A stretch of 60,544 bases of DNA, counting the filler, from Hausera hauseri (taxonomy: Eukaryota), in NCBI GenBank assembly GCA_046269625.1. It is 10 parts of 10 records of this genome, joined end to end, with 100 filler letters (N's around TTAATTAATTAA, not from the genome) between each part and the next. Parts side by side here need not be neighbours in the genome. Positions count along the whole stretch, not along the records: positions 12,917 to 17,980 come from JBJURY010347157.1; 9 more parts are not named here. One strand, 5' to 3'. The position numbers and the translations under genes are program-made. Below, piece after piece: positions 7,532 through 59,145 of the stretch. The notes below the pieces were generated by a model. That model did no database searches and was not told where the DNA came from. It worked only from the letters and a program-made list of their open reading frames with translations. Within the stretch, counting starts at the first letter, position 1. The number at the start of each line of letters is the position of its first letter.

Positions 7532-7608
7532 ATTCATGTGGGCTGAGTATAATTACTTCTTAAAATGAAACAAAAATGTTCTGAAGTAAACACTTCACAG
7601 AAACAATC
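7532..7608 (+). repeat. 77-bp exact direct repeat of the contig start (copy 2)
   Basis: Identical to 1-77; typical of a circularised assembly-graph node. Confidence 0.97.
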
Positions 7609-7708: not shown

Positions 7709-8955
7709 AGAGAAGAACCGCTTAGCAATTGAAGTAATATCGATTTAGAAATATTGGGTATAGACCCAGTAGATATTCCTCCCTTGATGGGAATGATTAA
7801 AATCGCATTTGCGGTACCAAAATAATATACAAACCTAGAAGACCGAATTAAAATAGAAAATGAAAGCCGAGCGCAGATTTACAGCCTGAGAAACCGAATC
7901 ATTTTCCCAATATATGAGGAGACTCAATACGTAATATATGCTTGTATCGTAGAATTGGACGAATATAAGGACGAGTTTAGTTATGTCGGTCAGATTATGA
8001 AATTTCTAAGAGGGACACACGATGAGTTAAAGGATGCATATAAGATGCTAGATAAAGCTATAATGGCAAAGCCAATGATCGCCAATCAATTGTCGAAATG
8101 GTCCGAATTAGTAATGCGGTTGAGCAAGTTAGTGGAAAACCTAAGAAAGAATCCCCAGAGAGCGAGCCTTCTGTAAAAAAGCAGTTAGAAGAAAGCGCTC
8201 GTAACTTAGAATTAATACTGGCAGAAATAGACATCCGAACGCGATTCGAAGCATCACGACGACTCAATTTTATGAAAAAGAAACAGGAAGCAACGATACT
8301 TGAAGAGATCTATGAAATGATCGAAGAGACAAATTTTACCGAAAAGCGAAATATGACTTGCAATTTTTATCCACGATTGAAAAATATCCGATTAGAAGGA
8401 GTTCAACATTTAACATATAAACCCATTGACGAGATCTCTGTCCAAGATATCGAGACACTAGATGTTTGTCCGGAACACCGAGTCACTTTAATGGACACAA
8501 TAAAATTTTTGCATAAACCTCAAGAATGGATGGCTGGATCAGATCAAAACTTCTATATCGAATTGATAAAAATAAGAAATGACCAACATATTAGTTTTCA
8601 GGAATCTAAGTTCGTAAAGAAACAATTAATGCTGAAATTACGACAAGTCGAAGAAACGTGCATAAAATCAAAACAAAGAGTAACGAGGCTAGATGACCTG
8701 GCAAAAGAACTCGAAATTTACCGAAATAAATATTCTTTCACAGAATCAGAAATCAAGAATAAGCGAGAATTCGTACAAAGATGGCAAAAAGATGTAATCA
8801 TTGAATTAACAGATTATCACCAAAAGTGACTCATTGATTCTAATGAATTCGGTGAATTACTAAAAATGATTCAGTATGCCTGTGGGAATGGAGTAGGTTT
8901 CCGGACTACGCAGATGAAAGAAATACAGCCCAGGTTGAAAGAAATTTGAGAAAAC

Positions 8956-10236
8956 ATGCAAAGAACGAGTGTAGCATTGGTAGGCACTGGACTTCCAGAT
9001 GTTGGAAACGAACCGGAATGGGACGCGTACTTCGACGCAATACTGGCCGAAAAACCCATGACCCCAGTACAAATAAACGAGATAAAAATGTGCCCACAGA
9101 ACAGGAGATTCAATGTGGAGATGCTTCTGGATTCAACGCTAGCTGAAAAAGACTTAATCGAACTAATTAACGTAAACATTGCTGAAAGTAAGGTAGGACA
9201 ACTTATTCCGACATTAACTAAATTATCTATTGAGAACACGATTTATAGCACGGTGCAGAAACTTTTGATAAGGAAATACGCTAAAATCTTGAGGACCAAA
9301 CCTGAAGTAGCGATGAAAGTACTAATATCATCCGAGTGGATGGTCGAAAAAGAATACGAATTAACTACATATTCCTATGTGAAGGACGTAAGAGAATGGT
9401 TATTAAATAATGGCGGAACCAATGAGGTAAACTATAGATTTTATTTTAGAGGCAAAATACTCGACGACCTAGAGCAATTTATAGATGTCGGAATCATTCC
9501 CGGCGAAACAAACCGAGTAGTAGTTACAATAGCTAACGAACAAACCAAGGAAGAAGCTACACGCAAAGCTAAGGCAGAACAATGCGTAGGACAAATCATG
9601 GGAGTCCGAGATGCCGCTATGTATTTTGAGTATTTGCAAATAGATGAAAATAAGGAAAAATATAATATAAATTTAGTACCACTGAGAGAAATAACAACGA
9701 AAGGGCCAAAGCTGAAACGTCCAGTAAGCCGACCTAAGAAAACGCGAGAAGAAGTTGTCTATAATGGAGAATTGATTAGAGAATTGAGACAGCTGTCGAT
9801 TCCGACTCTCAGTACAGATAATGAGAAATTAAGCGAGTTAATGAAGTATCTAGTACGAATCGTGAATTATTCAAGTCTTCGAGGTGACGTATTAGACGAT
9901 AAAGAAAAGATAATTTTTGAAGCAGCTAGAACGATGAGAAGTTCACGCTTTAAACTATCAAAAAGTAACTTAGCCGATGAATCGGTAATCGATAAGATTA
10001 TGGTAGAAAATACCAAGGAGGAACTAAGAAAAGTACTACTATATTTAGCTATCAAAGTAAACCCTAATCGAGAGAATGAAATTAATAGAGCTACAAGCTT
10101 AGCACGAAGAGCGGAAAGAAAATTGCCCCGTGAAGTAAATTGGTCAAGACTATTTGACAAGGAAGAAGATAGACGAACTAGTAATAAACTCGACGATATG
10201 TTACGTAATTTAACAATAACGAATCGGATTGGGTAA
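8956..10236 (+). CDS. Polyprotein segment with ubiquitin-like domain (~9310-9535) and degenerate Bcl-2-like helical domain (~9800-10160)
   Basis: MKVLISSEW..EYELTTYSYVKDVREWL..YRFYFRGKILDDLEQFIDVGI..VVVT fits a beta-grasp Ubl; DKIMVENTKEELRKVLLYLAIKV aligns by eye with EKMFATGITREKVVTAIAYLLYKV of copy B. Confidence 0.65.
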   Translation: MQRTSVALVGTGLPDVGNEPEWDAYFDAILAEKPMTPVQINEIKMCPQNRRFNVEMLLDSTLAEKDLIELINVNIAESKVGQLIPTLTKLSIENTIYSTVQKLLIRKYAKILRTKPEVAMKVLISSEWMVEKEYELTTYSYVKDVREWLLNNGGTNEVNYRFYFRGKILDDLEQFIDVGIIPGETNRVVVTIANEQTKEEATRKAKAEQCVGQIMGVRDAAMYFEYLQIDENKEKYNINLVPLREITTKGPKLKRPVSRPKKTREEVVYNGELIRELRQLSIPTLSTDNEKLSELMKYLVRIVNYSSLRGDVLDDKEKIIFEAARTMRSSRFKLSKSNLADESVIDKIMVENTKEELRKVLLYLAIKVNPNRENEINRATSLARRAERKLPREVNWSRLFDKEEDRRTSNKLDDMLRNLTITNRIG

Positions 10237-13123: not shown

Positions 13124-13141
13124 TGGTGCCGTGACCCGGGA
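13124..13141 (+). promoter_or_regulatory. Primer-binding site complementary to the tRNA-His 3' end
   Basis: TGGTGCCGTGACCCGGGA versus the known His-type PBS TGGTGCCGTGACTCGGAT; located between the LTR end and gag. Confidence 0.85.
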
Positions 13142-13296
13142 CCACTCGATACCCAAACGCACGCATTTGATATTTTTAAAAGTTTACCTTTGAAAGAAGC
13201 AAAATTAGTACTACTAGAAAAGGCACTAAATATCAAGAAGATACCGAACCACATTACGGTCTAGAGTATTTGGATAATCTGTCAGAAGAAAACGAA

Positions 13297-16200
13297 ATGG
13301 CCCATACAAATGTTGTAGAGCAATACGTGCAATCAAAGGCGGACTATACGCTACCCATGAAAAAGTTTAGTGGAAAAGAAGATGTACAGGATTTTATGAT
13401 GGAGTACGAAGTGTACTCAAGAAGTTTTGGATGGAATGACCAACAACGGATGGAAAGATTACCTCTTCATTTAAAGGGAACAGCCCTAACAATTTATTTC
13501 CAGATGCCAGAAGATGATAAGAAGGACTGGAAGTCCATTAAGGATAAGTTGCCGCAGAAGTTTCTAGTTGATCCCTCTGGAAAGGGGAGGATAGAAGAAT
13601 TTATACGAAGAAGGCAACGTAAGGATGAGTCAGTCCAAGATTATGTGTGTGCATTGGAAAAATTGGCAGCACGGGCATATCCTGACGTAACGATAAGAAG
13701 TAACGCTTTGTTGGCCCAATTCCAGTATGGATTGGAAGGAAAGTTAAGGACAATAATATTACAAGCTGACCCACCCACGTTCCAAGAGGCGATAAGGAAA
13801 GCTCGTAAAGCCGAACGGGATATGGAACTATATAGGTGGAACAAGTCCAAAAGTTATGAAGATAAACAAGATAAAAGGAAGAATAATAGCACGCAAAAAT
13901 ATCAACGATACGATAGGAATCGAAGCCCATCTCAAACCTCAGCAACAGAAGCAGAATCAGATATAGAAAAGAAGGTCAGATTTAAGCTGAAGAACGATGG
14001 AGAAAAGTCAAATTATAAAAGGAAGTCCTCTATGAAGGATGGAAGAGCATTGCCTAATATAGATTCGGAAGGAAGGTTGAAGTGCTTTAATTGCAATAAG
14101 TATGGCCACATAGCAAAATCATGCAGGTCACGAAAAAGAGATTCTTCAAAGCCCGATAACAGTAAACAGAAAAAGAAGAAGGATTACACATCAGCTACCT
14201 CGGATGAGTCATCTGATAAAGAATACGAAACAGAAGATAGCGAGCACGAAAAGAAAGATAAAAAGAAAGAAAGTGTAAATTATGTTAACGAAATATTGTC
14301 CCAACGAATGAAAAAGCAGTTAGCCATAGAATTAAACGACTATAAAATTCAACAAAAACGATTACGAGAAAATAGTATTTGCGTAACGGAAGAAAAGCCT
14401 AAAGGAGGAAAACCTCGTCCAGAAAGAAAGAAAGGTAACAAAAAGATAATAGAAGTAGAATCCCGCGAAACATCTGAAGAAAGAAGTAACGTAGGACAAA
14501 AAGGGAAAGGACGAAAGAAAAGTAAACCCGGTGAACCAACACCGGAGGAAAGTGAGGAAGAAACGCAACCAGCAAAGATTTTTGATGAAACTGTTATCGA
14601 ACAAGTAATACATGACATAGACGTAGACCTAGATGCCGAAGATGATCTCATTCAAGCAGTCATTGCCATAGATCCTGAGAACATACTTGATGTAAATCAA
14701 GCCACAAGTACGATATTGAAGTTAATAGATAATAAGGTATCTTCAGTTAAGATAAAGGAAATTTTATTTCAACTATTATTACTGGCCCACGATATTAGTC
14801 CAATTAGAGAGATAGCTCGGACAATACTGGCTAAAGCAGCTGAAGATGAAAAAGGAAGAAACGAAACAGTAAGGATAACGTTAAAAGAAGGGAATCAGGA
14901 TATCAGAGTTATTAGAATGAATGAAGCAGATGATATATTATCGTTGCGAGAAAGAATCGAAGACTTAGAACCATTTTACAAGGAAAAAGTATATGGGTTA
15001 AGTTTTTATGGAAGAACGTTATATGGTTATGATAAGTTATTACGAATAGGATGTAGAAGTGAAAATTACAACCCAATTATGATAACGGAAATACACCCTG
15101 ACGCAAGGGCAGAAGAAACGATAGAAAATATAATGAGGGAAATGCAACCACCTGAGACAGAGGAACAACCAATTGGTGATACACAGGATGTCACAGTACA
15201 AACTGAGGCTAGAAGAAGAGGGCGACCGAAAGGAACAAAGATAAGCGATATTCGAAATAAAAGAGATAGGAATGAAGAGATTGTAAGACGTCTGCTATTA
15301 GCAGGTACAGATACGACACCGGAAGCTATAGATATAGATCCTTTGTTAAGAACGTTGCTAGCGAAGTTACACACGTCATTTGCATCGTTTGATATGCAAG
15401 TAACAATTCCGGACGAACTATTCCAAACGTTGCGTAATGGAATGCTAAGAATCAGTAGACAATTTTATGAGAATATCAATGAAGAGAGAATTAACGAATT
15501 ACACGAACAAGACATATTGGAAAAGATGTTCGCGACAGGCATTACCAGAGAAAAAGTTGTAACAGCTATTGCCTATCTCTTGTATAAAGTAATCGTTATC
15601 AATTACCAAACACAAAATTTAGAGGAAATCGAAAGAAATATAAAAGTGACGGTTAAAATTTTACGTGATACGTTAGAAAGTTGGGTACAGTGTAGAGGGG
15701 GATGGATACCAAGTCTAATGAACGGTAGAATAAGACCCGAAGGAGGTTCGCATCAAAGAGCAGACACCATACAATTAAATACTATGAAACAAGGCTTAGG
15801 CGGTATGTCATTCATGGAGATATTACAATTATTATTGATAGCATCCATATGTATGCCAAAGGCCATGGGCGTGGTGGCCTATGATTGCTCGAAACCCAAA
15901 GAAGGGCAGAAATACTCATTGGTTGATCTTGAGAAGTGCCCAGAAGCCGATCCAGAACAATTAACAACAACTAGTGGTCATAGATATTGGGTATATCAAG
16001 AATCGGAGTTTATAAAAGTTAAAATTCGAGAATGTTACGTAAAGAGATCGTTCTTTCTATTTAATTGTGCATACTATTCTGGGAACTCCGCAATTATCGA
16101 ACCAACGACACCTTTTGAACCAATAATAATATCACGGGCGGAATGTCAGGATGCTTTTAAAATCGGAGTCATAACAATCCAGAACGCACAAATACCAGCA

Positions 16201-17337
16201 GTACGAAATAAGATAAAGTATACCCGAATTTTTAGAGCTGGAAGAATAGATAAAACAATGGAAGGAACCTGTAAAGGAGTGGAATACGACGTTGGAGGTA
16301 CCATCGCACCCCGAACAGTAGCCATTGAAGATTATCAGGTCCAGCTGAAGGAATATGAAGGATTGTTCGATTCTCAAACAAAACTCATGACAATTATGAA
16401 CGAATGCGAATACGAAAACGGAGAATGTGATACGGGAGAATCCAAAATGACATGGGAAGTATCATCGAATCGGTGTCACCTTACTTTATTGAAAGAAGGA
16501 AAGTTTAACAAGACAATAGGAAAGACGGCTGAAAAAGAATCAACAACATATAAGGAAGGAATTAAAGAAGTAAGGATGACAGAAGTAGCAACAGTAGTAT
16601 ACTCGGAAAATCCGGAAGAAATGATGCGATTTAAAATTGTTGGAACAATCAATAAGTGTAATGAAGAAATGTCCAAAACTAATTATAAAGGTATATACCT
16701 TTCAACTAAAGAAGTAACTCAAGCTAAAACAAAAATAGATAAAAAGGATATAAAATTAACGCAATATTTTGACAATAAAGTTGACTTTTTAATTAACTAC
16801 GTCAGGAAGGAAATTAGAAGTTTATACAGGGAAATAATACTGAACGAATGTAAACTAAATTATGAAATTATCCGAAATAAAATGGCGTTGGTCATAACGA
16901 ACCCCGACATGGTAGCCCCAGTAATGCCGTTTGGTGATGGGATGATCGGAAGAGTTATGGGCGAAGTATTGATAACTATTGAGTCTAAGAAGGTGGAAGT
17001 AGCAATTAGGCCAACAGAAGAATGTACATCAGAATTACAAGTGATTTATAATATGGAACCTCGATACGTAATGCCGGTGACAAGAATACTGCTAGACGTT
17101 AATGCGAAGCCCACTCAGTTAAATAATTGCACTTTTAATATGTCACCAATGTTTAAACTAGACGAAGATAAATGGATAAGAATGCCGGAAAGAGAGCCAG
17201 TACCGAAACCAGAAACATTGAGTTTAATTAATCTGCAGAGAAACCAGAAATTCGAACCTCTTATTGGCATATCACAAGGAGGAATTTATACACAACAGAA
17301 TTTAAAGGATTATTGGCGAATGTTACTGTTTCCCTAG
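13297..17337 (+). CDS. Gag - Ubl - Bcl-2-like - Env polyprotein (copy B) in one uninterrupted frame; the frame continues past in-frame TAGs to the contig end
   Basis: Gag capsid (KKFSGKEDVQDF..LPLHLKGTA..RRQRKDESVQDY..FQYGL), CCHC knuckle CFNCNKYGHIAKSC at 14083-14124, Ubl ~14866-15099, BH1/BH2-like motifs 15526-15705, signal peptide 15805-15870, VVAYDC at 15871. Confidence 0.9.
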   Translation: MAHTNVVEQYVQSKADYTLPMKKFSGKEDVQDFMMEYEVYSRSFGWNDQQRMERLPLHLKGTALTIYFQMPEDDKKDWKSIKDKLPQKFLVDPSGKGRIEEFIRRRQRKDESVQDYVCALEKLAARAYPDVTIRSNALLAQFQYGLEGKLRTIILQADPPTFQEAIRKARKAERDMELYRWNKSKSYEDKQDKRKNNSTQKYQRYDRNRSPSQTSATEAESDIEKKVRFKLKNDGEKSNYKRKSSMKDGRALPNIDSEGRLKCFNCNKYGHIAKSCRSRKRDSSKPDNSKQKKKKDYTSATSDESSDKEYETEDSEHEKKDKKKESVNYVNEILSQRMKKQLAIELNDYKIQQKRLRENSICVTEEKPKGGKPRPERKKGNKKIIEVESRETSEERSNVGQKGKGRKKSKPGEPTPEESEEETQPAKIFDETVIEQVIHDIDVDLDAEDDLIQAVIAIDPENILDVNQATSTILKLIDNKVSSVKIKEILFQLLLLAHDISPIREIARTILAKAAEDEKGRNETVRITLKEGNQDIRVIRMNEADDILSLRERIEDLEPFYKEKVYGLSFYGRTLYGYDKLLRIGCRSENYNPIMITEIHPDARAEETIENIMREMQPPETEEQPIGDTQDVTVQTEARRRGRPKGTKISDIRNKRDRNEEIVRRLLLAGTDTTPEAIDIDPLLRTLLAKLHTSFASFDMQVTIPDELFQTLRNGMLRISRQFYENINEERINELHEQDILEKMFATGITREKVVTAIAYLLYKVIVINYQTQNLEEIERNIKVTVKILRDTLESWVQCRGGWIPSLMNGRIRPEGGSHQRADTIQLNTMKQGLGGMSFMEILQLLLIASICMPKAMGVVAYDCSKPKEGQKYSLVDLEKCPEADPEQLTTTSGHRYWVYQESEFIKVKIRECYVKRSFFLFNCAYYSGNSAIIEPTTPFEPIIISRAECQDAFKIGVITIQNAQIPAVRNKIKYTRIFRAGRIDKTMEGTCKGVEYDVGGTIAPRTVAIEDYQVQLKEYEGLFDSQTKLMTIMNECEYENGECDTGESKMTWEVSSNRCHLTLLKEGKFNKTIGKTAEKESTTYKEGIKEVRMTEVATVVYSENPEEMMRFKIVGTINKCNEEMSKTNYKGIYLSTKEVTQAKTKIDKKDIKLTQYFDNKVDFLINYVRKEIRSLYREIILNECKLNYEIIRNKMALVITNPDMVAPVMPFGDGMIGRVMGEVLITIESKKVEVAIRPTEECTSELQVIYNMEPRYVMPVTRILLDVNAKPTQLNNCTFNMSPMFKLDEDKWIRMPEREPVPKPETLSLINLQRNQKFEPLIGISQGGIYTQQNLKDYWRMLLFP

Positions 17338-17715
17338 CAGAGACAACGAGTAATAGCAGAATTAACAAGAAGAGTGATGTGGGACGGAGAAGGTTCACCA
17401 CAATGGGAAAACATAATGGACAGAGATTATTTGAAGAAAGTCACAAGAAGTGTTATGGAAAAGATGTGCGGAAAATTCCTCTATTTTGGCCAGGCTGCTT
17501 CAGGATTTTTAGCAATATATTTCATCATCAGTGCCCTACGGACAATATTCACTGCACTTGGTAAAGCTTACAGAATACATGCAGCAGTAGGATGCTCTTG
17601 GAAAATCCTCATAGCGGTAATACCGACAGTTGCTAGTTGTTTTCCAGCAAACCATGACGCCAAATGGAAGAGAAAAATTCTTAAAGGAAGAAATAACGAT
17701 ATCGAAAAGAATTAG
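17338..17715 (+). CDS. env: In-frame continuation of Env: membrane-proximal region and TM
   Basis: After the TAG at 17335-17337 it reads QRQRVIAELTRRVMWD...KFLYFGQAASGFLAIYFIISAL, homologous to the TMs of copies A and C. Confidence 0.85.
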   Translation, partial: QRQRVIAELTRRVMWDGEGSPQWENIMDRDYLKKVTRSVMEKMCGKFLYFGQAASGFLAIYFIISALRTIFTALGKAYRIHAAVGCSWKILIAVIPTVASCFPANHDAKWKRKILKGRNNDIEKN

Positions 17716-18872: not shown

Positions 18873-21800
18873 TTACAATTGCGACAATGGAGCAGTGCCC
18901 CCGAATCCACCACTTTGCGAAATGTCCTGGGAATTGTAGTCACCGGCAAAATACTCGTGAGACCGCATCTGATTATTGATGATTGGCTGATACGTTGAAT
19001 CCTGTGACAGTAAACTGAACTCGTTCAACATGTTGTTCGATGACGAGTTAGGGTCCATCATGCCATCCTGTGATAATTGGGACAATCCACCAAATCCACC
19101 AATGGCTCCACGACCCAGAGAATTCTGTGACAGTCCACTGAGACCAACACCGAATCCTTCCTGAGACATTGGCTGAGTCAGCATGTCTGGTCCACCACCA
19201 ATGTTCCTCATGGGATTTGTCATCACCCTGCCACCCATGGCTGTCTGGTTACGGTACCCTCCTTGATTATATCGTGGTGGGGGACCTCTATTGTTGGTAA
19301 CAGGGCCACCAGGTGCTTTGCTGAATAAAGATGGTGGTCCACCGAATTGTGTTTGTTGATGATTGCCGAGTACACCCAGCATGTTATTGGGTTGGTGTTT
19401 CTGTGTACTGTTGTTGACGAATGCGAATGCCGGATGCGGCGGTGGTGGTGGACATAGCATGTTGATAGGGACAGGCAAATTTGATGCATTGGATGCTGGA
19501 TTCAATTGGCGATTTGAACTGATGTAATTCATTGGATCGTACGGACTGAATCCGAATTGACTCTGCATCATCGGATTGACAAGTCCAGATGGGCCCATTC
19601 CCAGACTGGAGAATTGATTAGGTCCATTGGCGAATCCCGACAAACCGGATCTGGGATTGGCTGGATTGTAGATGCTACCTGATCCACCTTGTTGACTCAT
19701 CCGTGGAATGCTGTTGTATTCTTTGGCGCTGTACATGGTGTTGTTCATGAATTTGGCTCCCGGATTGACCATGTTCACCATCTTCTTTACTTTCGGAAAT
19801 TGGATCAGTGATTCCTTGAGATTATTCAAGGCACCTTCCACCAGCAGATGTTGGTCCTTGAAGAAATGGAGCAGATTGTTCCAGAGTGGTTGTTTCGAAA
19901 GCGCTTTTGGATTACCAACGATGATGAGTCCGTATTTGGCACGAGTCAATGCCACATTGAGTCGACGGGGGTCGTTCAGGAATCCGATTCCCTGGTGTTC
20001 ATTAGCACGGACACACGACAGAATGATATAGTCCTTCTCACGGCCCTGGAATGCGTCGACAGATGCCACCTCGATTTCTTGGTAGAGTTTCGTGTTGAGG
20101 GATCCCGTGAAATGGAAATAGTGGACCAGATATGCCCGTTGACCTTCGTAAGGTGTGATGACGCCAATATTGATCGGCTTCACGCCATCCTTCAGCAGTC
20201 TCGTCACGATTTTCTCGACGGTGGCCGCCTCTGTTCGATTGAGGTAAGACGTCCCATTACTGGCCATTTCCTCCTGTCCCGATGAGCAATAGAAGAATGT
20301 CGGTTTGTCAGGATTAGGCCAGGGAAAGTCGATTTTGTTGCATCGTTCCTCGGCTGTGACTCCATTCTGGAGACTGCCCTCGTAGAAAATGTTACTGGGG
20401 AATGACGATAACACCGGATGCATACGGTACTGAACCTGCAGTCGCATTGGACGAATACCCAGCACTACAAGACGCTCGAACAAACTCTGACTCAGTCCGG
20501 CCTTGGCTGCCTTCTTACACATAACGACTGGGCCCAATTGGCAATGGTCACCGACAAGAACAGCTTGTTTGCATCCTAACACCAACGGAATGAGACACTC
20601 GGGTTCAGTAGCCTGTGTCGACTCATCGATGAGTACACACGAAAATCTCATCCGACTCAATCTCGGGTCACCGGCACCAACACACGTACAGCAAATCACA
20701 TCAGCATGAGTCAACAATTCTCTCTCCAGCTGTTTCTTCAATGCCCGATATCGTCGTTCGTCCGACTGACTCAATTCGCCAGTCTCATCCTTCAGCTGCT
20801 GCAACTTCTTGAACTCGCTGTTACCCTCCATGTTGGCTATCTGTACATGCAATGCCAAATGACTGACCGGCGACTGGATGGCTTCTCTCGACTTGGCACA
20901 CAATCTGACCACCTTCAGGCCGATTTTGTCAATTTTCTCTGTCAACTGATCGACGGCAATATTACTGGGTGCACAGACGAGCACCTGGCCTTGGTTCATC
21001 TGACTCAGATGGTACACGATCGTGGCCGATGTCACCGTTTTCCCGGTACCCGGCGGACCTTGGATGAGACTCAGTGGTCGCTGGAGAACTGTCCGCACGG
21101 CGTACACTTGACTGTGATTCAATTCCGGTAGTCCTGGTGCTGAGAATCTCTTCGGCATGTTACATTTCATGATCATCTCGTCAGCCTCATGGCCGAGCAA
21201 TTTGTGATAAATGTATGCTGATACCGAGTTCTCATCAATTGCGAGAGTCTTGAGTGCCGTCTGCATTCGATCGAACGACGTCGACTTCCATACGTATTCG
21301 ACAACAAAATTAGACGTATGCTCTACCGGTACATTGCTACAGGCGTTCTTTAACTCTATGCCAACCTCATCGGAATAATCTAAACACATTAAAATACGAA
21401 ATTAAATCATATGAACGCACTGTCTGGAATTTTAATGACATGGCCAACACCGGTCCACTGTTTGCTAGGATCGCCAACGTAACGTAAACGCAATTCATCC
21501 CCGTGCATTAATTTCATCTCTACATATCCTATAATAATTCTCAATGGAAATGTACACCATACCTTCGTTGGCTTTGGAGAAATTAAAATATGCCACTCGT
21601 TTTTTGTTCAGTCCAAGATCCCATCGGACGAAGACATTCTCTTGGGTCTTGGATTCCTTCACCCGACGATCATAATCGGCTTCCAATTTTACAAGTGGAC
21701 CAAGAATATTTTGATACTGATAGGCATCTTCATAACGCAACATAACGTGGTGCGGCTCTTCGTCGACACCCGGTTTTTCCAAGTCCTCTAATGTGGCACT

Positions 21801-22866
21801 CGGATTTTCTTTCCATAGTTCTTCCAGTTTGTTTATTTGTTGAGCTGACATCTGTCTAGCTCTGCATTGCTCCTCGTCGCTTGGTACTTTTACAAGCCAC
21901 GACAAAAACTGTCGATCAATTATTAAAGGTTGCCACTGACTTGGATCCCATGTCATGTCTTTATTCTAATTAATAACGTAAATAATATGATAATTGGTTA
22001 AAACAAAAATAGAGTTCCGTCATTTACTTTGCCATCGTTAAGTAGAATACTAACTAATCTATTTCATTGTAACATTATGCAGAAGTTAAAATGGCATCTT
22101 TATGACATTTTTCAATATTTTAACCAAATAATATTATACAGCTTATGACACATTATTCCTACGCATGTTACAAAATTTACGCAGTATGAATAAAATTAAG
22201 AAAGCAGTTTTATGCCACAAAGGTAACTAAATATTGACATGCAAACCTGTTGAGCGCATGGATGCCGACATAACAACACAACAACTGATTCTGCTTTTGC
22301 CGGAACGAAACCGAGTTGGAAGACATTTTTACTAGCACAGACATAGCATTCCAATACCGTATCTTTTAATGGACCATCTTTATGTAACGTGACTTCTTTC
22401 GTCTTCGCTCGCACCAGATGGTGAATAATATGACTTCCCGACGTATTTCCACGGCCATTACAAAACCATTTCTTGGTGGCATTGCACATAACAACTGCTG
22501 CAGGATCGTGTATTCCGCAATATGAACACGCCCAATGTGGCAGTGTTTTCGGTTCTTCTATTTCAGCTTCCTCTTCTTCTTCAAATTTTAAATTACTGAT
22601 GCCGCTTTCCAGAATTGGATCAATATCCTTAAAACTCTGAAATAATCAACGAATTTCAGTAAAAATTTTTAAATATTTACCTTTTCGTTATCATGTGATT
22701 TGTCCAATTGTGAAGCTTGAGTTTGAGATTGCGATGGAACTGAAAAAACATTATAATCAATTTCAGTATCTTGTGTGACACCGCCAATTAAATCGGTTTC
22801 ATCCGTATCAAGGAAGGTTAAAGCTTGAGAATTGGTATTGTAAAAATTTGGGTCATAAATATCCAT
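18873..22866 (-). CDS. UPF1: Regulator of nonsense transcripts 1 (SF1 RNA helicase), complete; exons 22681-22866, 22247-22636, 21563-21965, 21421-21519, 18873-21379
   Basis: CH domain ([26 protein letters not shown]), [43 protein letters not shown]-rich tail; all four GT-AG introns are phase-compatible. Confidence 0.97.
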
Positions 22867-25088: not shown

Positions 25089-27935
25089 TTAATATGCTGA
25101 AGAATCAAATAGAGCCTTCAAGATCAAAAATAGGCCCATATTGGAAAACACAAATATAGCTGATTGGCTGCATGAAGAGCATATGAAGCTGATCCATGAA
25201 GCCGATAAGAGCCAGGATAAGAAGAGTGGATGGGCTCTGGCAACCATCAAGAGACTGCTTATATATGTACACAGATATTCCCCCATGCGAGGCAGTTCAT
25301 ATATACAGCTTCCGGACTGGATCGCTAATAAGAAAACATGTATCAATGTTCAAAACAATGACAACAAGTGCATCATGTATGCCATTTTATCAAAACTCGT
25401 AACGGATCAAAGGCATGCAGCAGATCGGATTTGGCTATATAAGTATGTGCAACACAACTATGACTTTCAATGCATCATATTCCCTCCATCCATAGATAAA
25501 ATCAAAAAGTTCAGCCGCATCAACAACATGTCCATCAATATCTTTTGATTGGATGAGAAGAACAAATTCTACCCCTTGCAAATATGTGATGATGAATTGG
25601 AAAATCATAGGGATCTGCTCCTATTAGACGATGGTGATAAGAAACATTATGTGTGGATCAGGAATTTTAAGCGTCTAGTCAGATCCCAAATAACAAATCA
25701 CGAACATGGAATCGAAATATGCAAAAGATGCTTATCGCATTTCAGCGGCAAGTTAGCTGTGTAGAAGTTGAAGTAGCACAAGATGTATTGCAACAACAAT
25801 TATTGTGTAAGGTTAGAATTTCCCAAAAAGAATTATATCGAATTTATGGAATTTGAGAAGAAGATCAAAGTCCAAATTGTCATCTATTGCGACTTTGAGG
25901 CTATTCTCAGACCACTGTATACATGCACCCCCAGTCCTCAACATAGCAGTACAACAGCATACCAATATCACGAACTCTCATCGTATTGTATGTATGCCAA
26001 AGGACTAGACAATGAACCATATCTGTTTAGAGGTCCAGGTGAAGCAGCACATTTCATGAAGAGACTTGAGACATGGCTCATAAGCTTGAAAACATGTTAC
26101 AGCAATATAAGGACGACATGAGCATGTCTTAGATGCAAGAACAAGAATGGCGCAAGGCAGCATCATGCTACTTGTGTGACAAGTTCTTTACCAAGGGAAA
26201 TTGGAAAGTTAAAGATCACTGCCATTTTACAGGTGCATACCGGGGTGCAACATGTAACAACTGCAATCTACGATGCAAAACATGCACATATGTGCCGCTG
26301 GTATTCCACAATCTCAGCGGCTATGACAGCCACTTCATAGTCCGAGAATTAGGCAACATTGATGGCGATATAGAAGTGACCCCCAATAGTGAGGAGAAAT
26401 ATATCACTTTCACTAAGCATGTTGGTAAAATCCGATTTCGCTTCATCGATAGTTTTTGATTCATGTCGTCTTCACTGGGCAGTTTAGTGAAGAACCTGCC
26501 TACTGAAGAACTCAAGGAAACGAAGCGATTCTTTCCGGATACCTTTGACCTAGTTAAAAGGAAAGGAGTGTTTCCCTATGACTATAACATTATGGGAGAC
26601 ACTGGATGAGACCTCATTACCACCCAAGCGTGGTTTTTACAGCAAGTTGTCGGATAGGGATATCAGTGATGAGGACTACCAACATTCTCAGAACGTCTTC
26701 TACAGGCATTCCAATGCAGAACATTAGGGGAATATAGTGATATATATCTCTAAACTGATGTGCTGCTGCTGACAGATGTATTTGAAAGTCTCAGGGATGT
26801 CACAATGAAGCGCCATACTTTTGATCTAGCTCATTTCTTCACGGCTTCAGGGATGAGCTTGGCAGCAATGCTGCGCTATACCGGTATCAGGCTGCAAATC
26901 ATTAAGGACTACGACATGATCCCTATGATCGAAAGAGGCATTAAAGGGGAATATGCCAAGCCATTCATCGGTATAGTGAGGCTAACAACAAATATATGGC
27001 TGAATACGACTCAACAAAGGAGTCAACATATATTTCTTACCTGGATGCTGACAACTTGTATGGATGGGCAATGACCGTCCCATTGCCATATGATAATCTC
27101 AAGTGGGTTGAGCATCCTGATGACATTCCTATCATGAACCTGGACCCCGCTGGAGATATTGGCTGCATACTTGAGGTGGATATGGGATATCCGACTTCTA
27201 TCCACACAAGGCATCAACAGCTGTTTTTCCTCCCTGAATTCAGACCACCGCCCAATGGAAAGCAACGAAAGCTTCTTTGCCATTTTGGTAATAGGGAGAG
27301 GTATGTAGTTCACTACATCAATCTCCAGCAGGCAGTTAAACATGGACTCCGCATTACCAAGTTTCACAGAGCCCTCAAATTCAGCCAGTCCATGTGGTTG
27401 CAGTCCTACATTGATCTAAACACCAAGTTGTGGACAAATGCCAAAAGCGATTTCGAAAAAGACCAATTTAAGCTCTATAATAACAGCGTTTTTTGGCAAG
27501 ACGATGGAAAATATCCGCAACAGGATCAGCATCGAGCTTGTATGTGCTGGAAGCGTGCAAAGAAGCTTATTTCAAGGCCTAACTTTCATAGTAGAACCAT
27601 ATATGCTGAGAATTTGGTAGGGATCCATATTCTAAAAACATCAATAGTATTTAACAAGCCCATATATGTGGGTATGGCAATATTGGACCTATCAAAATCC
27701 CTAATGTACGACTTCCATTGTGATATAATGCTGACAACATTTAAGTCCATACAGCTGATGTATATGGACGCTGACAGTTTTATCTATCACATCGACGCGG
27801 AGGACATGTATAAGGACTTTTTAAAATTAGCCCAGCACATAGATACCTCGGATTATCCGAAAGATCATCCAAATTATTCTAGTACCAATAAGAAAGTCCT
27901 CGGGAACTTCAAGGACGAGGTGTATGGTAAGATAA
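25089..27935 (+). pseudogene. Protein-primed family B DNA polymerase of a Polinton/Maverick- or adintovirus-like element, decayed and 3'-truncated
   Basis: GSSYIQLPDWI, IYCDFEA (ExoI), DHCHFTGAYRGATCNNCNL (endonuclease VII-like), FHNLSGYDSHFI, RFIDSF, KGVFPYDY, YLDADNLYGWAM, KLYNNS/FGKTMEN, YMDADSF; many stops and frameshifts. Confidence 0.92.
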
Positions 27936-28382: not shown

Positions 28383-28830
28383 TTACATACAAAGTTGCTT
28401 GTGGTATTGCGGCGGTATTGTTAACATTACTACTACCTGCTGTTGTGATCTGATAATTACGTCATGAGTCAAAGTCATGCTGATTTCCTCAATTGGCAAA
28501 TTAATCATCGTGTATTTGAGGGTTTTGGTTGATAGGTCCATTGGGAGACTTGAAATTTGAGATAATAAATACATTCCTATTACCAAGGATACTTGCAATA
28601 TTTTGTCGTCCACCAAAAACAGAATGATGGTATGTAGATTTTCATCAATTCTTATTTTGATGTTTATTTTTCCTGAAAATTGTACTTGTGTAGAATTGGC
28701 CGCTGCTATTACCATATCACTCGGCATAAATGTTTCTTTTTGATCGTCAATCAAGCATGAATGTCGAATCATTGACATGCATGCACCGGTATCTAGTAAT
28801 GCCATAATATTTAATCCGTTAAATTGTACT
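28383..28830 (-). CDS. Ty3/Gypsy-type aspartic protease
   Basis: VQFNGLNIMALLDTGACMSMI...IAAANST.V..SG.....LVIGMYLL. Confidence 0.9.
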
Positions 28831-29279
28831 CAAATGTAGCGGTTATTTCCTGTTGTTATAGTGGTTTGAGTCATAAAAATGAATTTTGTATTATTTCGTC
28901 GAGTATCCGCGGTATTATATTGTCGGAGTACATTTTGTGGATAAGCAGTGCTTGGTAAGCAGGTATATTTATCCAAATCTCTTGCCATTGGAAGATCATG
29001 CATGGACGTGACCTTCATTTCTCTGTAATCAGGATATTCCGGGAATTCATCAATAGGTTCGGGTTTATAGTATGTTGGTACTTCTGGCTCGAAGTGTTGT
29101 CTAGCTTTCTTTCTCACTAATTTATATTTAACCAGACATTCTTCCGTTGTTAACTTAATAAAACTTGTAACTGTTGTTCTAGTTCTGGGGCTAGACGAAG
29201 TTCTTTTTTTAATTTGTCAAGTTCCTTTCATGCCAGTACATTAATCCTGATTGAGCCATTAAGGGAAAACATACAAGCA

Positions 29280-31110
29280 TAATTTGCCATGTACAACCAC
29301 GTACTTTCTTTATATTTCTGGCGACTCCTGTTTGTCTTAATATAGCCATTATAGTGGTAATTATAACATAAATACCAAAAACTCCAGATATTACCTGACC
29401 AAAAATAAGGAATTTATTCCAGACGTCATAAAGGACTTTTATGCTGTTCTCTCTAAATGGTCAATTGGCAATAACATTTTATAATTAGGTACACCATCTG
29501 ATCCTTTTGTAACAGTATATACGAATTCTGTGATAACTTTTCTCGAATATTCTAAAATAATTCCTGTTTTCTTACTGCCTCCAAATCCGTTAATGAATAC
29601 AATCCACTGGTGGGGAGTTCTCTATTTACTTTAAACTTTATACCTTTATCCTGTTGTAACAATCCAATCGTCTGCGGTATATTCATCGTAGTTGGAAGCG
29701 TGTGTTAGTACACCTTCCGTCATTAGGTTTAAAAGCTGGATAGAAATTCTTGTAACATGGTGCAAAACTAATTTCTGTAGGTAATAACAATTTTCGAGTA
29801 ATAGGATCTACATATCCGATTTTAAGTATGTTTTTCTCTTTATATTGAACCATTAATTCATTTGTGCAATTTTCTCTTGTGCTCGTTATTGGGGTTATCT
29901 GTATTGGAGGGCACTGATATACATGGCGTATTTCACCTTGTACCCTACCAAATGTTTCAGGGCGATATTCCCTAATTAAGACAATATGTTCTGGGAATTC
30001 TCTGGCTAGTATTAAATCATTCTGGTTCAATTTTTGAGTAATTTTACAGTCTCTTAGTACCACCATGTTATATAACTCAACTAAATCCATTTTTGCCGTG
30101 TAATAAATATAATCTATCTTGTTGTTCGTGTATAGGTACTACTTTATATCTTCAATTGGTAGCTTTCCTGTATTTGCTAGAATTACGTTTATTAAAAATA
30201 GATCTTCATAAGATGTAGAATAAACGGCATTCGATCCACAAGTCTATACTGCTCCTTTGCGTGCCAATACGATTCCATCTTTGTCGCTGGATGATATTAA
30301 GACTTTTAAAGAAGTGGTCTGTTTTAAGGTTCGTGGGGTAGGTAAACTTATACTATGGTTGTGTACAGGTTCTTGATATTTGTTATCATAATATAAATTA
30401 TTTTAGATTTTATACATAGATACTTGTTTAAGGAAAGCTAGTGGACATATTACGACCGTTTTTTCCCAAACTAGGGTAGATTCTCCTAATGTACACACTT
30501 CATCAGAATATGTATAAGATGGTGCGGTTAATATTTTTCCTGCAATTGCATTGAAGTTTACTTTATATTCCTTTATGGTGACAGTAAAATCTTCTATTTG
30601 TACCACAGCGGATTCTTTTTGTCCACTTATCATCATACTTTGTCCTTTACAAACTCCACCATATCCTGGCCATATTTTTATGGCTGGAACTATACGTGAA
30701 TAAACTCGTTTTCCTATGCCTGCCTGTACTAGCTGTTGTAAGCCTACGTGAATTGAGTCTGTGGAATTTATACAATTTTCATCAGTTATTGTTACGGGCG
30801 TAGGTAGTCCTGGTGCAATAATTACTGAATTCCACGAATTATGACCGCAATTATAAGCAAATAACTTTATTAATTTGACATTCCTTTACTTGCACTCGTT
30901 GATTGCTGATTCTTTGATACAAGTTATAAATGTAAAGACCTTCCTTCTTTACTGATATTAGATTTGCGTTTTGATATTTACCTATATCTACCAGTGAAAG
31001 TCTGGCTATTATTTCTGGTTTGGAGCAATCGTAAGCTTCTAATGCCTTCGTAGTTTTTAGGCTACTAACGGCTATTAAATATAATAACAGATGAATAATT
31101 TGTACTTCCC
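29280..31110 (-). pseudogene. env: Envelope glycoprotein (chuvirus-G/gB-like), fragmented
   Basis: Hydrophobic leader then AYDC (31026-31037); fragments 30403-30636 and 29683-30090 align with copy B (IEDF.V.IKEY, GES.L.WE, GRVQGE, CTNEL.V.Y, YVDPITR); conserved TM. Confidence 0.8.
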
Positions 31111-32745
31111 AATCTGAGACATTGGTATCTTTGGGGTGTATTAATGTAGTGGTGTTAAATTTCTTGAGGATTTCGTCCCAACCACTTTGTTTGGTTACTC
31201 ATTCTTTCGTTAACTTACCCATATGATGGGCTAAATTCCTCACTATATTGTGTAACTTGACATCAACCTCTGTTTGGTTTTTAAAGCTTACCACTATGCA
31301 TCCTAATGTCATCAGTAGTGGTTTAGATAACATTCCTTTAATAATGGTGTCAATGCTTTATTCAATCCACCTTTCAATTTATATTTATGTAATATTCTCG
31401 TAATTTGTGATGAGAAGTTTCTAGCAGTTTCTATTATGGACTGTAATGGAATTGTTGTTATTGTTGGTATCTTCTTGAGTTGATATGGATAAGCTTTCTT
31501 AATTAATTGTTCTAAGAGTTCATTAGTTGTCAATGTTACCTTTGGTACATCTATTTTGTTTTCATCCAAATTTCCCGGAGTAGGATTTTTTATTAATTCA
31601 TTTTCATCATCACTAATAGTAAATCGCTGGATGTTATCACATAATATATCTTCTAACATTTCCCGTTGCTCCTTACGTTTTCGCGACAAAGGTCTTTTCT
31701 TTCTTTGCCTTTCTGGCTTTTCTTATTCGGAATTTTCTTAATCATCACTTATTGGATTAAAATCGCATTTTTGTGGCCTCTCTCCTTTTTCTTGGTGCCA
31801 AATTCCATGGCAATCTGATGAATTTTTCCAGTAAGGAGTCCATAATCTACAACATAATCGTTGTCAATGGCCAATCTGCTATAAACATCAGTTTTCGCTG
31901 TTATATTACTTTCTAGATCTAATTCCTCTCGCACCTTCCTTCGGAGATCTTTAAATTTGGTTAACATTCCTGCTGTTACTTTAATTACTTGTTTCCGCTT
32001 ATTAAACCTAATTTCTATACTTATAATGCATGGTTGTTTTCTTCTGTGTTTTCGTCTCAGATCTCTTCAAAGAGCTTTTAGTAACTTTCGTGCGGCTGAA
32101 AAGCAGAAAACGTCATCTTTTGTTAGCGGCAGGAGTAAAGGCGCACATTCTATTCGACTAGTTAATGGTAGTGACTCATATTGTCGTAAAGCATTTCATA
32201 CTTCATTAGGTGCTGAAACAGTCATATGTAATTTAGCTTTAATTATTTCAGTTACTGATTCTGGAGGTTTGTCGTGCACTATAGAACCTGGTGGAATATT
32301 CATTTATGGAAAGATTTTTGGGTTTTCCATTGGCAATAGTGTAGTTTCAGGATATTGGATCACGTCCGATGTAAGTATAAGTTCATTGTCTTCTAGGATT
32401 TCGAACATTTCGTCTCCATCGACTACTCGTGGTTCCTTTTTGGAGGTACTTGGGTGTATTGAATCCCAAATACTTTTTAATAGCGTGGGCCGTTGGGGTG
32501 GAATCTTTAATTGGGGAAGTGGTGCGACTAATCTATCGTTATAAGGTTCTATCCATTCTCCAGTTGATCTTGTTCTGACGAGCTCATGTGATTATTCATC
32601 ATAATCCATATCCGTATGTCTGAGCAATTGGTTCGATTACTGGAATTGTTGTTGCTTCTTCAATTTTCTCAAGTTTTCGTATTGCTGGAAAGGCTATTCG
32701 TAATGTTTTCTGGCTTTCTATTATTCATGGTATATTGTATTCTAC

Positions 32746-33195
32746 TCATACTGTCCTTAAGTATTTGTCTAGACATCTTTGTGCCATAATTTCTGAGTTA
32801 TGACCATGATACAGGTCTAAACATTTGTAGGTTCTGTTATTCTTTTCCAGGTCGTAGATGGCGGTTAGATTTGCTGGATTTATTCTCAATGCATTTAATA
32901 ATTCTGGAAACTGGCGAGCGATAATTACTTTTCCTGGTAAATATTTATTCACAAATTCGTTTACTGACTCTTTTCGTTGAGGATTGGATCTTCTACTATA
33001 TTCGGTGTACTCTATAATATCTGGTATGTTCGGATACACATCAATATTGAGAATTGTTTTTCCTTCCAAATTTTTGGCAGTAACTTGTGTAAGTCCTTTC
33101 TGGTCTCCTTTGATTATGCATCCACCTGTAAAAATTATTTCTGTGTCCTGTCTTACAAGTTCATCCGCGATAAATATGGGTATTTTTTTAAGCAA
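32746..33195 (-). CDS. Degenerate REX4/ISG20-like DEDDh exonuclease domain
   Basis: LTQVTAKNLEGKTILNIDVYP, VNEFVNKYLPGKVIIA...LNALRI and HGHNSEIMAQRCLDKY follow the REX4 pattern, but the acidic catalytic residues appear replaced. Confidence 0.5.
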   Translation of the reverse strand: MLKKIPIFIADELVRQDTEIIFTGGCIIKGDQKGLTQVTAKNLEGKTILNIDVYPNIPDIIEYTEYSRRSNPQRKESVNEFVNKYLPGKVIIARQFPELLNALRINPANLTAIYDLEKNNRTYKCLDLYHGHNSEIMAQRCLDKYLRTV

Positions 33196-33442
33196 TTGTA
33201 TTAAGTATATNNNNNNNNNNNNNNNNNNNNNNNNNNNNNNNNNNNNNNNNNNNNTTAATTAATTAANNNNNNNNNNNNNNNNNNNNNNNNNNNNNNNNNN
33301 NNNNNNNNNNTATGTCCGTCTTCTTGAATTTGGTACACTTTTCCTCCATCGTAATATATTTCAGGCGGGAATCCATACAAAACCTGTAAAAGTTGTTGAA
33401 AAGAATAACCAAAGGAGATCACACAACTTTGAAGGTGGAGTA

Positions 33443-40430: not shown

Positions 40431-42342
40431 GGGAAAAAATTAACATAATGACATTTAGATTCTATTGACAAATTATCGCCTGGAGATCGGCGTTCTCGTA
40501 TTGGTTCCATATGACAATCGACATTCTTTGAAATGTATACAATTTAACGAGATTACATTATTCCAATTATGCATAGAAAATGGTGATAAGCAGATTACAA
40601 AAACAAATTGGCACTGAATTGCGTGTGTTTATTTTAATATTAAAACAAAAAATAGTTTTTTTGAACAAATCACCCATCGGGTAAATGTGGGCACCACAGC
40701 ATTCAACTGAGCATCATACAGGTACTTTTAACAACAGACCAATTCGACACAGAAGAAAAGATCGTTCACCTACAAGACGCAATGCTGCCGAAGAGGAATT
40801 TTGTAAATTGGAACGCTTTGAAATAATCCAAAGTTCCATTCCCCAATGGGCTTCGCCGTTACATATTGTATAAAAGAAGCATGGCACAATACATCTCTGT
40901 GGAGATTACAGTTTGTTAAACTCAATAACGCAGTACGATTCTTATGATGTCCCGTTACTTTCAGATATATTTCAACGCCTTTCTGGATGTAAAATATCAT
41001 AGACCTTCGATGATAAGAAAGCTTATTACCAAGTTCAAATAGCAACTATAGATATTCCGTAAACCCCGGTAATCACTCTCTTTGGACTTTTCCAATACCG
41101 CTACATGGCGTTTGGTTTCAGAAATGCTGACAAACATCTCAACGGCACATAGACACGGTAGTGGCTGGATTACATTTTGCGCATCTATATATGAATGATA
41201 TATTAATAGGTTTCATCAAGGGAAAGCGAATATCTCGATCATTTCAAAATAGTTCCAAAACGTTTACACGTCAGCTAAACTCGGAAAATGCTGTTTCATC
41301 AAGCCGTGTGTACAATTCTTTGGTCACTTTATATCTGACAAAGGTAATTCTCCTCTACATGAACGTCTGAATCAAATAATGAATATTTCTGTACCAAAGG
41401 CTATCACAGAGCTACGTCGTTTTCTTGGTACTCTCCATTTCGTATATTGATTTGTCTCGAATTGCTCAGATCTTACTGCCCGACTAGCTTCATTCAGGGC
41501 TGGCTAGAAACGCGCGACTCTTAAGTGGACGGATTCAATAATTACCGAGTTTAACAACTTGAAAAACAAGCTGCAGACTATTAATATCGTAGCTTATCCG
41601 AACGCAAAAGCTAAACTGTACTTAACAGCAGATGCTTCTTCAGTTGCCACAGGAGGTATACTACATCAGATTACAGAAGAACTATATGAACCTTTGGAAT
41701 TCTTTTCCCTGAAATTCTCCTATGTGGAATGCAGATACTCCATATTTGAAAGAGAACTTTTACCTGTGAAACACTTTAAACACATTCTACAAGCTGGAAC
41801 GTTTACACTACAAACAGATTATAAACATCTGTTACTTATAATATCTATCTCCAAGACAAGAGAGGAAAATTGAATATTTTTAAAACCTTTTACAACATTT
41901 TCTGCCTTCATCTTTCAAGATAAATTACGGGCATATCCTCCAACAAAATATCTTACTCACTGCAAAAGGACGGAAACTATTGCCGGAATATTTTATAATA
42001 TATCAATTCACGGAAAGAAACGAGCAATCACTCACTCGTCGCTAAGAAAGCCTATTTTTTCACCACTTTCATCAGTTACATCATTCAGGAATAAAGACTC
42101 AGTACAAATTAATACTCTCAAAAGTTTTTTGGCCATCCATGCGAAAAGGTGTTCAAATCTGGTGCGATAAATGCATGTCCTGCCAGAATTGTAAAGTAAC
42201 AGGACACATCCAACCGGCGCTCTATAATTTCACGTGTTGAGACCGTACGTATCGATTTAGTGGGACCTCTGCCACAGTGTAACGTTTACAGGTTCCTTCT
42301 AACAATGATGGGCCGATTGACACTTTGGCCCGAACTCACTGC

Positions 42343-42420
42343 TGTGGTGCCCGTGTGCGTTTTCGCCCTTTGGCCCATTCTAGCCGACTACAGTCGGGGG
42401 CGTCGACTCCACTCCTATCG
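42343..42420 (+). repeat. LTR 5'-end fragment related to the contig-10 Gypsy LTR
   Basis: TGTGGTGCCCGTGTGCGTTTTCGCCCTTTGGCCCATTC versus TGTGGTGCCCGCGTCGATCGTCGCCCTCCGGCCCATTC (minus strand from 51522); right limit unknown. Confidence 0.65.
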
Positions 42421-42767
42421 TTTTGCAGATCGGATTAGATTTTTATCAGAATCCTATCGTTTGTGGAGTTCCCAATCAAAACGACCGTCCATTACAATTA
42501 GGATAAAATTGTCGCGTTTCCACCGATTTCACAGGCTAAACTGTCAATCAACCCAGAAATTACAATCATTTTCAATGTATATTCCATAAACGATATTGTG
42601 CACTTCAAATATATTAGCCAAACATAAATGACGATATGCATGGTGGGCCAGAAGTTAGGGGGCAATACCAAAAATGTTGGCTTAAGTATCTGTTCAGTTT
42701 ATTTAAGGTATTATATCTATGCACAGCAATATAATGGATTAAAAGCGATACTTTTATTTACAAATAC

Positions 42768-43440
42768 TCAAATTGTCCACCATTTACTTCGATACAGTTC
42801 AAAACTCTGTTCTTCATCGATGAACACTTTGTGACAGAGCTCCGGAGTAAATAAATGAAAAGCGTTGGTTATTCTTTCTTTCAATTCTTCCAATGAACGT
42901 GGTTTAGTACAGCACACAGCTTCCTTTATAACTCCCCAGAAGAAGAAGATGTCAGGCGGTATAAGGTCGGTGGATCTTGGGTCCACTCGAGTCCTCCCCG
43001 TCGCTCTATCCAACGACTACCAAAATGTCAGTCAACCACTTAGGAGCCATGTTTCCATAATGCGCTGGGGCGCCATCATGCTGAAACCATCTTTCCTGAA
43101 TATTGGGCAAATCTGAGACAGCCAGGTAAAACTTTCCCATCAAAACTGTGGTGTATGACTTGCTTGTTACATTGCCATGAAAGAAAAATGGCCCAATCAA
43201 CGCATCACAGCAGATAGCGGCCCAGACGATTACTCCTGAAGCATTAACATTACGTTCAATTTCTTTATGTGGATTTTCTGCAGCCCTATAAACGGTATTT
43301 GAAATGTGCTTCATCAGACCAAAAAACTTTCGTGAGAAATGAAGGACATTTGTTAAGGAAGGTTTTGCAGAATCATTTCGACGGTCTGGATCATTTTCTG
43401 ACATGGCATGCACGAGATGTTTGAATAGTCTGCGCAAAAG
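42768..43440 (-). mobile_element. Tc1/mariner-superfamily transposase remnant
   Basis: VIVWAAICCDALIGPFFF, WFQHDGAPAHY, PRSTDLIPPD.FFWG.IK, SLEELKERI. Confidence 0.88.
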
Positions 43441-44399
43441 TTTCGGTTTGATAAATTTTTTTAGTTCCTATATTTTGGGATTTCAATAAAACCTCTTGGG
43501 CTTCAAAGTTGTGTATTGATATTTTACAAATTTGTTGATTAAATTGCGCTGGATATTTATCAGGATTCGTTCCATTTGGATTCATTAAATAAAAATTTAC
43601 CCTTGCTAAATAAGATGGATGCATTGTCGGTGTGGAGAAATTGGACAAGGTTATTTCGAAACACCAGAAAAACTTGGTTATGATTTGTTATTCGTATGAC
43701 TTTAACTCAGATTAGAAAAATGCAATTTTACGATCCCAATAAACAAACTCAAAAATAGTAATTGCACTTCGTCAACCCGATGCAGCTACATAGCAGACGT
43801 GTTCATAAAGATGTGTATAAATCGGTTCGGATCCCTGAAATACGTAACCACAGACCAGGGACCTCAGTTTGAATCATCTCATCCTCAGGCGAACGGTCTA
43901 CTTGAACGCTTCCACGCACCCTCAGAGTGTCACTTAAAATTCTCGCAGACCAAAATAAGAATTTGGTATCTACGCTGCCGTATGTTCTACTTAGATGGCG
44001 GAACACTCCGTCGACTTCTACAAATTGTTCACCGGCCCAAGAACCTTTTGGAACGTCCTCTATTCGAACAAATATAACAAAATGATACTTCTGAATATCA
44101 CATTATCAGACAAGCTCAAGACCACTTTTTAGAAGTCAAGAAAGATGCATTCGGCCGTTTGATAAACAAAAACAAGAAATTCCTTTCTGAAAAATTATAC
44201 GAAACCAAGCTCTTCAATGAGTTTGAAACCTCTATATCACAGCCTTTATAAAGTTATCGAACTTTCTTTACACAACGCGAAAATACTCAACAACGGACAA
44301 GAAACAAACGTAAAATTGGCGAATGTGAGGCCATCTACAAGAATTCTTAGAACAGTGTTAGATTGTACTGGCTATTCTTATAGTCTTTACAATCCTATA

Positions 44400-59135: not shown

Positions 59136-59145
59136 GCTTGTAAAT

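Follow-up and report, generated by a model that had tools for sequence, protein, structure and literature searches.

Large DNA viruses are known to encode mimics of Bcl-2. Among retroelements, a BCL2-like motif has been described in the Burro1-4/GYPSM1 elements, giant gypsy-like LTR elements of the planarian Schmidtea mediterranea with a Burro-like element in Dugesia tigrina, whose polyproteins comprise Gag, a Ubi2/SUMO-like motif, the BCL2-like motif, and Env, followed by protease (PMC6431247). Beside BCL2, these elements carry the apoptosis domains BIR and MATH_TRAF, and meddling with apoptosis and ubiquitination is put forward there only as a proposal (PMC6431247). A second group of related systems consists of the GAG-ENV-POL errantiviruses with an HSV/gB-type Env, reported from Nematoda, Bryozoa, and Platyhelminthes (PMC13524379). 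A word search of the main text of that study, which did not look for such a domain, returns no mention of Bcl-2, apoptosis, or ubiquitin, and neither RGGW nor Burro is matched among the listed text of its supplements. The available text of PMC8532177 and PMC11410931 likewise contains nothing on such a domain, and the literature search found no functional study of a retroelement Bcl-2 domain. On the host and viral side, viral Bcl-2 proteins influence cell death even when no BH motif can be recognised in them (PMC11209288; PMC2836074), and flatworms are reported to possess a mitochondrial pathway based on Bcl-2/Bak (PMC8998228).

The window analysed here, a stretch of 60,544 nucleotides including filler, is composed of ten separate contigs of Hausera hauseri (GCA_046269625.1) joined through N spacers. 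Its animal origin is indicated by a Upf1 helicase and by mucin WxxW and Ig/LRR exons. The finding concerns the contig at 12917-17980 (JBJURY010347157.1), referred to below as contig B. It carries an open frame at 13180-17337 (+) of 1,385 codons, with the first Met at 13297, whose product is designated P0001. The order of domains in P0001 is Ty3/gypsy Gag, helical domain, ubiquitin-like domain, AT-hook-like motif, Bcl-2-like domain, hydrophobic segment, and gB-type Env (Table 1). An in-frame TAG stop at 17335-17337 lies inside the Env of this copy, and the same frame continues beyond it to the end of Env. The tRNA-His primer site is the single match in the window and is located directly after the presumed 5' LTR end. 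Pol is absent from contig B, which ends at 17980.

Table 1. Coordinates and supporting evidence of the features discussed (positions along the window)
Feature	Position	Strand	Evidence or remark
Primer-binding site, tRNA-His	13124..13135	+	Exact reverse complement of the tRNA-His 3' 12-mer, as given in PMC13524379 supplement 1
Ty3/gypsy capsid domain, residues 59-214	13354..13821	+	PF19259, E 5.6e-5; 59% identity to P0002
CCHC zinc knuckle (nucleocapsid), residues 301-316	14083..14124	+	PF00098, E 1.1e-4, above cut-off
Probable helical domain, without Pfam name	14602..14844	+	Alignment A4; common to P0001, P0002, P0003, and contig A
Ubiquitin-like domain	14863..15099	+	PDB matches of profile A4, best E 9e-4; PF00240 E 0.21 in P0001 and 0.0046 in P0003
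AT-hook-like motif RRRGRPKG	15211..15234	+	RGRP invariant in 3/3 (P0001, P0002, P0003)
Bcl-2-like domain	15322..15723	+	Pfam PF00452, PDB matches, alignment A4
Alpha-1-like helix	15334-15369	+	Part of the Bcl-2-like domain
Degenerate BH3	15406-15420	+	IPDEL aligned to BOK LGDEL, Pro in place of Gly
Degenerate BH1, GITREKVVTAIAY	15538-15576	+	Aligned to BH1 of BOK and BAX
Intact BH2, LESWVQCRGGW	15673-15705	+	Ends GGW
Hydrophobic segment, residues 881-899	15820..15876	+	Hydropathy peak 1.94 at residue 881; counterpart peak in P0002
gB-type (class III) fusion glycoprotein Env	15877..17715	+	PF24664 (Monjiviricetes fusion glycoprotein), E 5e-61, residues 880-1385; one in-frame stop
Contig A: helical and ubiquitin-like domains, segment in the Bcl-2 position, broken Env	8950..10236	+	Module profile E 1.2e-9
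Contig C (decayed): gB-type Env and then aspartic protease, preceded by a possible remnant of the module and a BH2-like stretch broken by a stop	28386..32066	-	Pfam (Env, protease), translation

The AT-hook-like RGRP motif sits between the ubiquitin-like and Bcl-2-like domains. The probable helical domain, which directly precedes the ubiquitin-like domain, keeps an A-x3-S-P motif, and its version on contig A is more distant.

The closest resemblance in layout is to Burro, with which the element shares a single frame encoding an N-terminal Gag with a CCHC knuckle, a ubiquitin/SUMO-like domain, a BCL2-like domain, and a fusion protein of mononegavirus-like type; Burro has its protease after Env, as does the related contig C. 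The novelty implied by the sequence-only reading is thus not sustained, since the arrangement ubiquitin/SUMO-like domain, BCL2-like motif, Env has already been published for Burro (PMC6431247); the term AT-hook is not mentioned in that source. The Burro ORFs, in contrast, are giant (4,873-5,140 aa) and carry BIR, MATH, ankyrin, and Smc domains (PMC6431247), whereas Pfam finds none of these four in P0001 or in its two homologs P0002 and P0003, and P0001 is compact, with about 900 residues ahead of Env and one knuckle. Having the Burro-like layout without the giant size and the BIR, MATH, and ankyrin features, the element is therefore considered a compact relative in layout and not Burro itself, the comparison being by description only. 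With the GAG-ENV-POL errantiviruses it shares a Ty3/gypsy Gag followed by a gB-type Env with an internal signal segment, a tRNA primer site, and a multicopy nature (PMC13524379). With host and viral Bcl-2 proteins (BOK, BAX, BAK, Bcl-2, and the proteins of dsDNA viruses) the domain shares the sequence at the BH1 position and BH2, the helix pattern, and a downstream hydrophobic segment, and BOK in particular shares GIT-x-x-KVV with it. It differs from them in being embedded in a polyprotein, in the loss of NWGR and BH3, and in that its hydrophobic segment would serve also as the Env signal.

By sequence comparison, the segment listed in Table 1 is confirmed to encode a Bcl-2-derived domain, as had been claimed for a retroelement polyprotein at this place. 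PF00452 matches the 136-aa piece at E 5e-7 with 30.6 bits, which is 0.8 bits short of the curated cut-off of 31.4, and matches residues 773-842 within the whole P0001 protein at E 1.6e-5; the absence of any profile hit, named beforehand as grounds for rejecting the claim, was not encountered. In a PDB sequence search at E<=10, 29/30 matches were BOK, BAX, BAK, Bcl-2, or Bcl-xL, the best being BOK at E 0.0035, aligned over 102 residues. The three-sequence profile built on alignment A4 (P0001, P0002, and P0003), for which a lax threshold of E<=10 gives PF00452 matches in 3/3 members with a best value of 3.1e-6, returned 183 PDB matches at E<=10; among the 60 listed of these, 30 are ubiquitin-like domains at profile positions 78-203, and the other 30, at 318-387, are Bcl-2 chains. 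From these comparisons, it follows that the module is composed of a helical domain, a ubiquitin-like domain, the AT-hook-like motif, and the Bcl-2-like domain. An amphipathic helical domain that resembles Bcl-2 by chance, or a captured remnant evolving neutrally, would accord with a score just under the Pfam cut-off and with the modest best single PDB value, but is rendered very improbable by the PF00452 E value, the concentration of PDB matches in one family, the agreement of three distant proteins, the synonymous excess described below, and the independent annotation of the motif in Burro (PMC6431247).

Both BH1-like and BH2-like motifs were found where they had been reported, in a single open frame, with 31 residues between them. 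LEKMFATG begins at 15517. At the BH1 position, GI, K, A, and YLL are kept in 3/3 proteins, and BH2 takes the form W-x4-RGGW (WVQCRGGW in P0001), with RGGW invariant in 3/3. The previously noted loss of the NWGR core is upheld: TREK occupies this position in P0001, and SRNK and EDTK do so in the two homologs, so that W, G, and R are replaced by R, E, and K in P0001 and the Gly position differs among the three proteins. The BH3 motif with Gly-Asp does not occur in P0001, and in alignment A4 BH3 is absent from P0003. Across the three proteins, hydrophobic core positions are invariant, and the BH1 and BH3 surface motifs are lost.

These observations bear on whether the domain could act as a canonical viral-type Bcl-2 protein whose usual groove sequesters host Bak, Bax, or BH3-only proteins by their BH3 motifs. 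The presence of the alpha-1-like helix, the BH1 position, BH2, and the downstream hydrophobic segment is compatible with such a function, as is the poxviral protein DPV022, in which no BH motifs are recognisable although it binds Bak, Bax, and Bim (PMC11209288). The replacement of the NWGR residues in P0001, differing again in P0002 and P0003, speaks against it, given that human Bcl-2 no longer binds Bax when it carries W144A, G145A, G145E, or R146A (PMC6825947), and the variable Gly position argues against a conserved groove; this function is accordingly regarded as unlikely. The sequence-only reading had offered both an apoptosis inhibitor protecting the producing cell and a repurposed fold similar to the poxviral Bcl-2-fold immune antagonists, and the canonical BH3-binding inhibitor is the weaker of the two because the replaced W, G, and R sit where these substitutions abolish Bax binding (PMC6825947).

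Residues 881-899 form the sole strongly hydrophobic segment of P0001, between BH2 and the start of Env, and are predicted to be the Env signal peptide and possibly a tail anchor of the Bcl-2-like domain. A hydrophobic segment follows BH2 in P0001 and P0002 and was not found in P0003, which stops 20 residues after BH2; either the anchor is therefore not universal or the P0003 record is incomplete.

Searches for relatives have yielded few proteins. A word-indexed protein search gave 1 match among 7,999 candidates, another covering 8,000 candidates of 218-697 aa gave no relative, and a third among 7,998 longer proteins gave P0002 and P0003 only; a HMMER scan of 1.84 billion representatives with a two-sequence profile produced 2 matches, and two metagenome scans produced no locus, none of their 520 and 334 pattern matches being confirmed. 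P0002 is 44% identical overall to P0001 and has the same order through Env, while P0003 is about 20% identical to P0001 over the module and shares the Gag-helical-Ubl-AT-hook-Bcl-2 order with P0002. Between P0001 and P0002, identity reaches 48% in the Bcl-2-like domain, 52% in Env, and 59% in the capsid, compared with 32% for the ubiquitin-like and 24% for the helical domain; the three linkers reach 24% (pre-Env), 29% (long Gag linker), and 39%.

The family is highly repeated and diverse, with 17,312 contig records from run X1 matching the stretch, for the most part at 90-99% identity or lower. Variants were taken from four public runs, X1-X4, which are not independent, as the source sample may be X1 itself and the other three may derive from the same host; runs X5-X9, with small shares, were left aside. 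Within 15280-15780, the best-supported 40 of 170 variable sites comprise 36 synonymous and 4 nonsynonymous changes, against an expected synonymous share of about 29%, within a range of 22-31% (binomial p about 1e-15 for these best-supported sites, which are no random draw), and no indels occur in the Bcl-2-like domain among the 40 of 170 variants listed. Over the whole of contig B, the best-supported 40 of 1,223 sites comprise 29 synonymous and 6 nonsynonymous changes and 5 beyond the stop. These counts provide evidence of purifying selection on the Bcl-2-like domain, apparently of a strength equal to that acting elsewhere in the frame.

Selection of this strength fits a structural role equally well, in which the Bcl-2 fold would be reused as a matrix-like spacer tying Gag to the membrane and Env within a one-frame Gag-Env protein, with no effect on host signalling. 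That the domain always immediately precedes the Env signal segment, in P0001 and P0002 as well as in contig C and the published Burro, agrees with a spacer, as does the loss of the BH1/BH3 surface motifs while the hydrophobic core and RGGW stay invariant. Several points nevertheless make it a somewhat unlikely explanation: a word search of the description of GAG-ENV-POL elements finds no mention of such a domain, although PMC13524379 did not search for one; P0003 has no Env, terminating beyond the domain; and the BIR and MATH domains of Burro point to apoptosis control (PMC6431247).

Two further contigs of the window had been regarded, together with contig B, as copies A, B, and C of one element, to be compared by dN/dS. 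This view was rejected, as the three lie on separate contigs, have no blastn match to one another, and show Env identities of 27-41%, so that they represent distant families. On contig A, the module is recovered by HHalign with a probability of 78.5 and P 1.7e-5, and the helical sub-profile matches at E 0.001. The LPREVNW attributed to copy A is indeed present, but the segment in the Bcl-2 position is not significant, its score being reached by 97 of 1000 shuffles for the BH1-BH2 part and by 285 for the whole domain; with no Pfam Bcl-2 match and no relevant PDB match either, it was discarded as evidence for Bcl-2. The TGA reported for copy C likewise exists, at 31201-31199 (-), within a segment that is only marginal against shuffles (43 and 6 of 1000, respectively, reach its score) and has no Pfam Bcl-2 match. 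Contigs A and C may thus be said to offer weak support, and to the gene order more than to Bcl-2 identity. With the Bcl-2 domain marginal or not above chance in both, relatives appear to tolerate heavy drift.

Upstream of the contig A module, 7826-8829 (+) contains helical, charged frames, with no Pfam match for 8056-8829, and a capsid was not seen on this contig. Upstream of the contig C module, an open frame at 32749-33210 (-) recalls by eye a degenerate DEDDh exonuclease, an identity that was set aside in the absence of any Pfam or PDB match. Elsewhere in the window, 26133-26459 (+) encodes Endonuclease VII and a fragment of protein-primed DNA polymerase B and is Polinton-like, and other contigs carry a pair of decayed pol regions of Ty3/gypsy type (RT, RNase H, and integrase) at 40684-44381 (+) and 52105-54546 (-), which are 40-60% alike in protein, with no link to the Env elements shown. 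A host gene for the Upf1 helicase, whose intron appears to be short, occupies 18873-21965 (-), and helicase C-terminal pieces adjoin an LRR/Ig exon at 58031-60217 (-). The first contig, which holds repeated mucin-type (WxxW) exons, has the same 77 bases at its two ends (1-77 and 7532-7608), which probably arose where copies of a tandem gene repeat overlapped in the assembly.

Taking the comparisons together, the explanation preferred here, though held tentatively and at somewhat less than even confidence, is that the conserved domain derives from Bcl-2 and travels as accessory cargo within the Gag-Env polyprotein of an enveloped Ty3/gypsy retroelement present in many copies, likely acting as a membrane-tethered modulator of host death or defence. 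The hydrophobic segment, 38 residues after BH2, would enter the ER as the Env signal, and cleavage would send Env into the lumen and leave Gag-Ubl-Bcl-2 in the cytosol, tethered by this segment in the way that a tail anchor tethers host Bcl-2 proteins. The Bcl-2-like domain may then bind a host partner via a surface other than the classical BH3 groove, by which the producing cell would be kept alive while fusogenic Env and particles accumulate. A modulator of this kind is supported by the Bcl-2 homology, the order kept in P0002 and P0003, the domain identity close to that of Env and the capsid and above that of the flanking linkers, and the synonymous excess, as well as by the BIR/MATH_TRAF domains of Burro, the viral Bcl-2 proteins without BH motifs, and the flatworm Bcl-2/Bak pathway. 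It is weakened by the Pfam shortfall, the lack of the segment in P0003, and the drift in contigs A and C. A bolder extension, which is to be considered improbable, holds that the helical-Ubl-AT-hook-Bcl-2 block might be the ancient minimal core of a wide Gag-Env-Pol lineage, of which Burro would be an inflated form, and that the Env signal would double as the Bcl-2 tail anchor. One cleavage would then release a fusogen and leave a BOK-like, groove-less protein anchored in the ER, whose role would be either to block death through a new surface or to shape the membrane for budding.

Burro is the sole case of a retroelement Bcl-2 found in print, where it was noted by domain search (PMC6431247). 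To this, the compact family adds evidence of purifying selection, two distant homologs that reveal the positions kept, and a natural domain of 134 residues that is small enough to express, fold, and assay. If the domain does protect cells, retroelements of stem-cell-rich invertebrates would control host death much as DNA viruses do.
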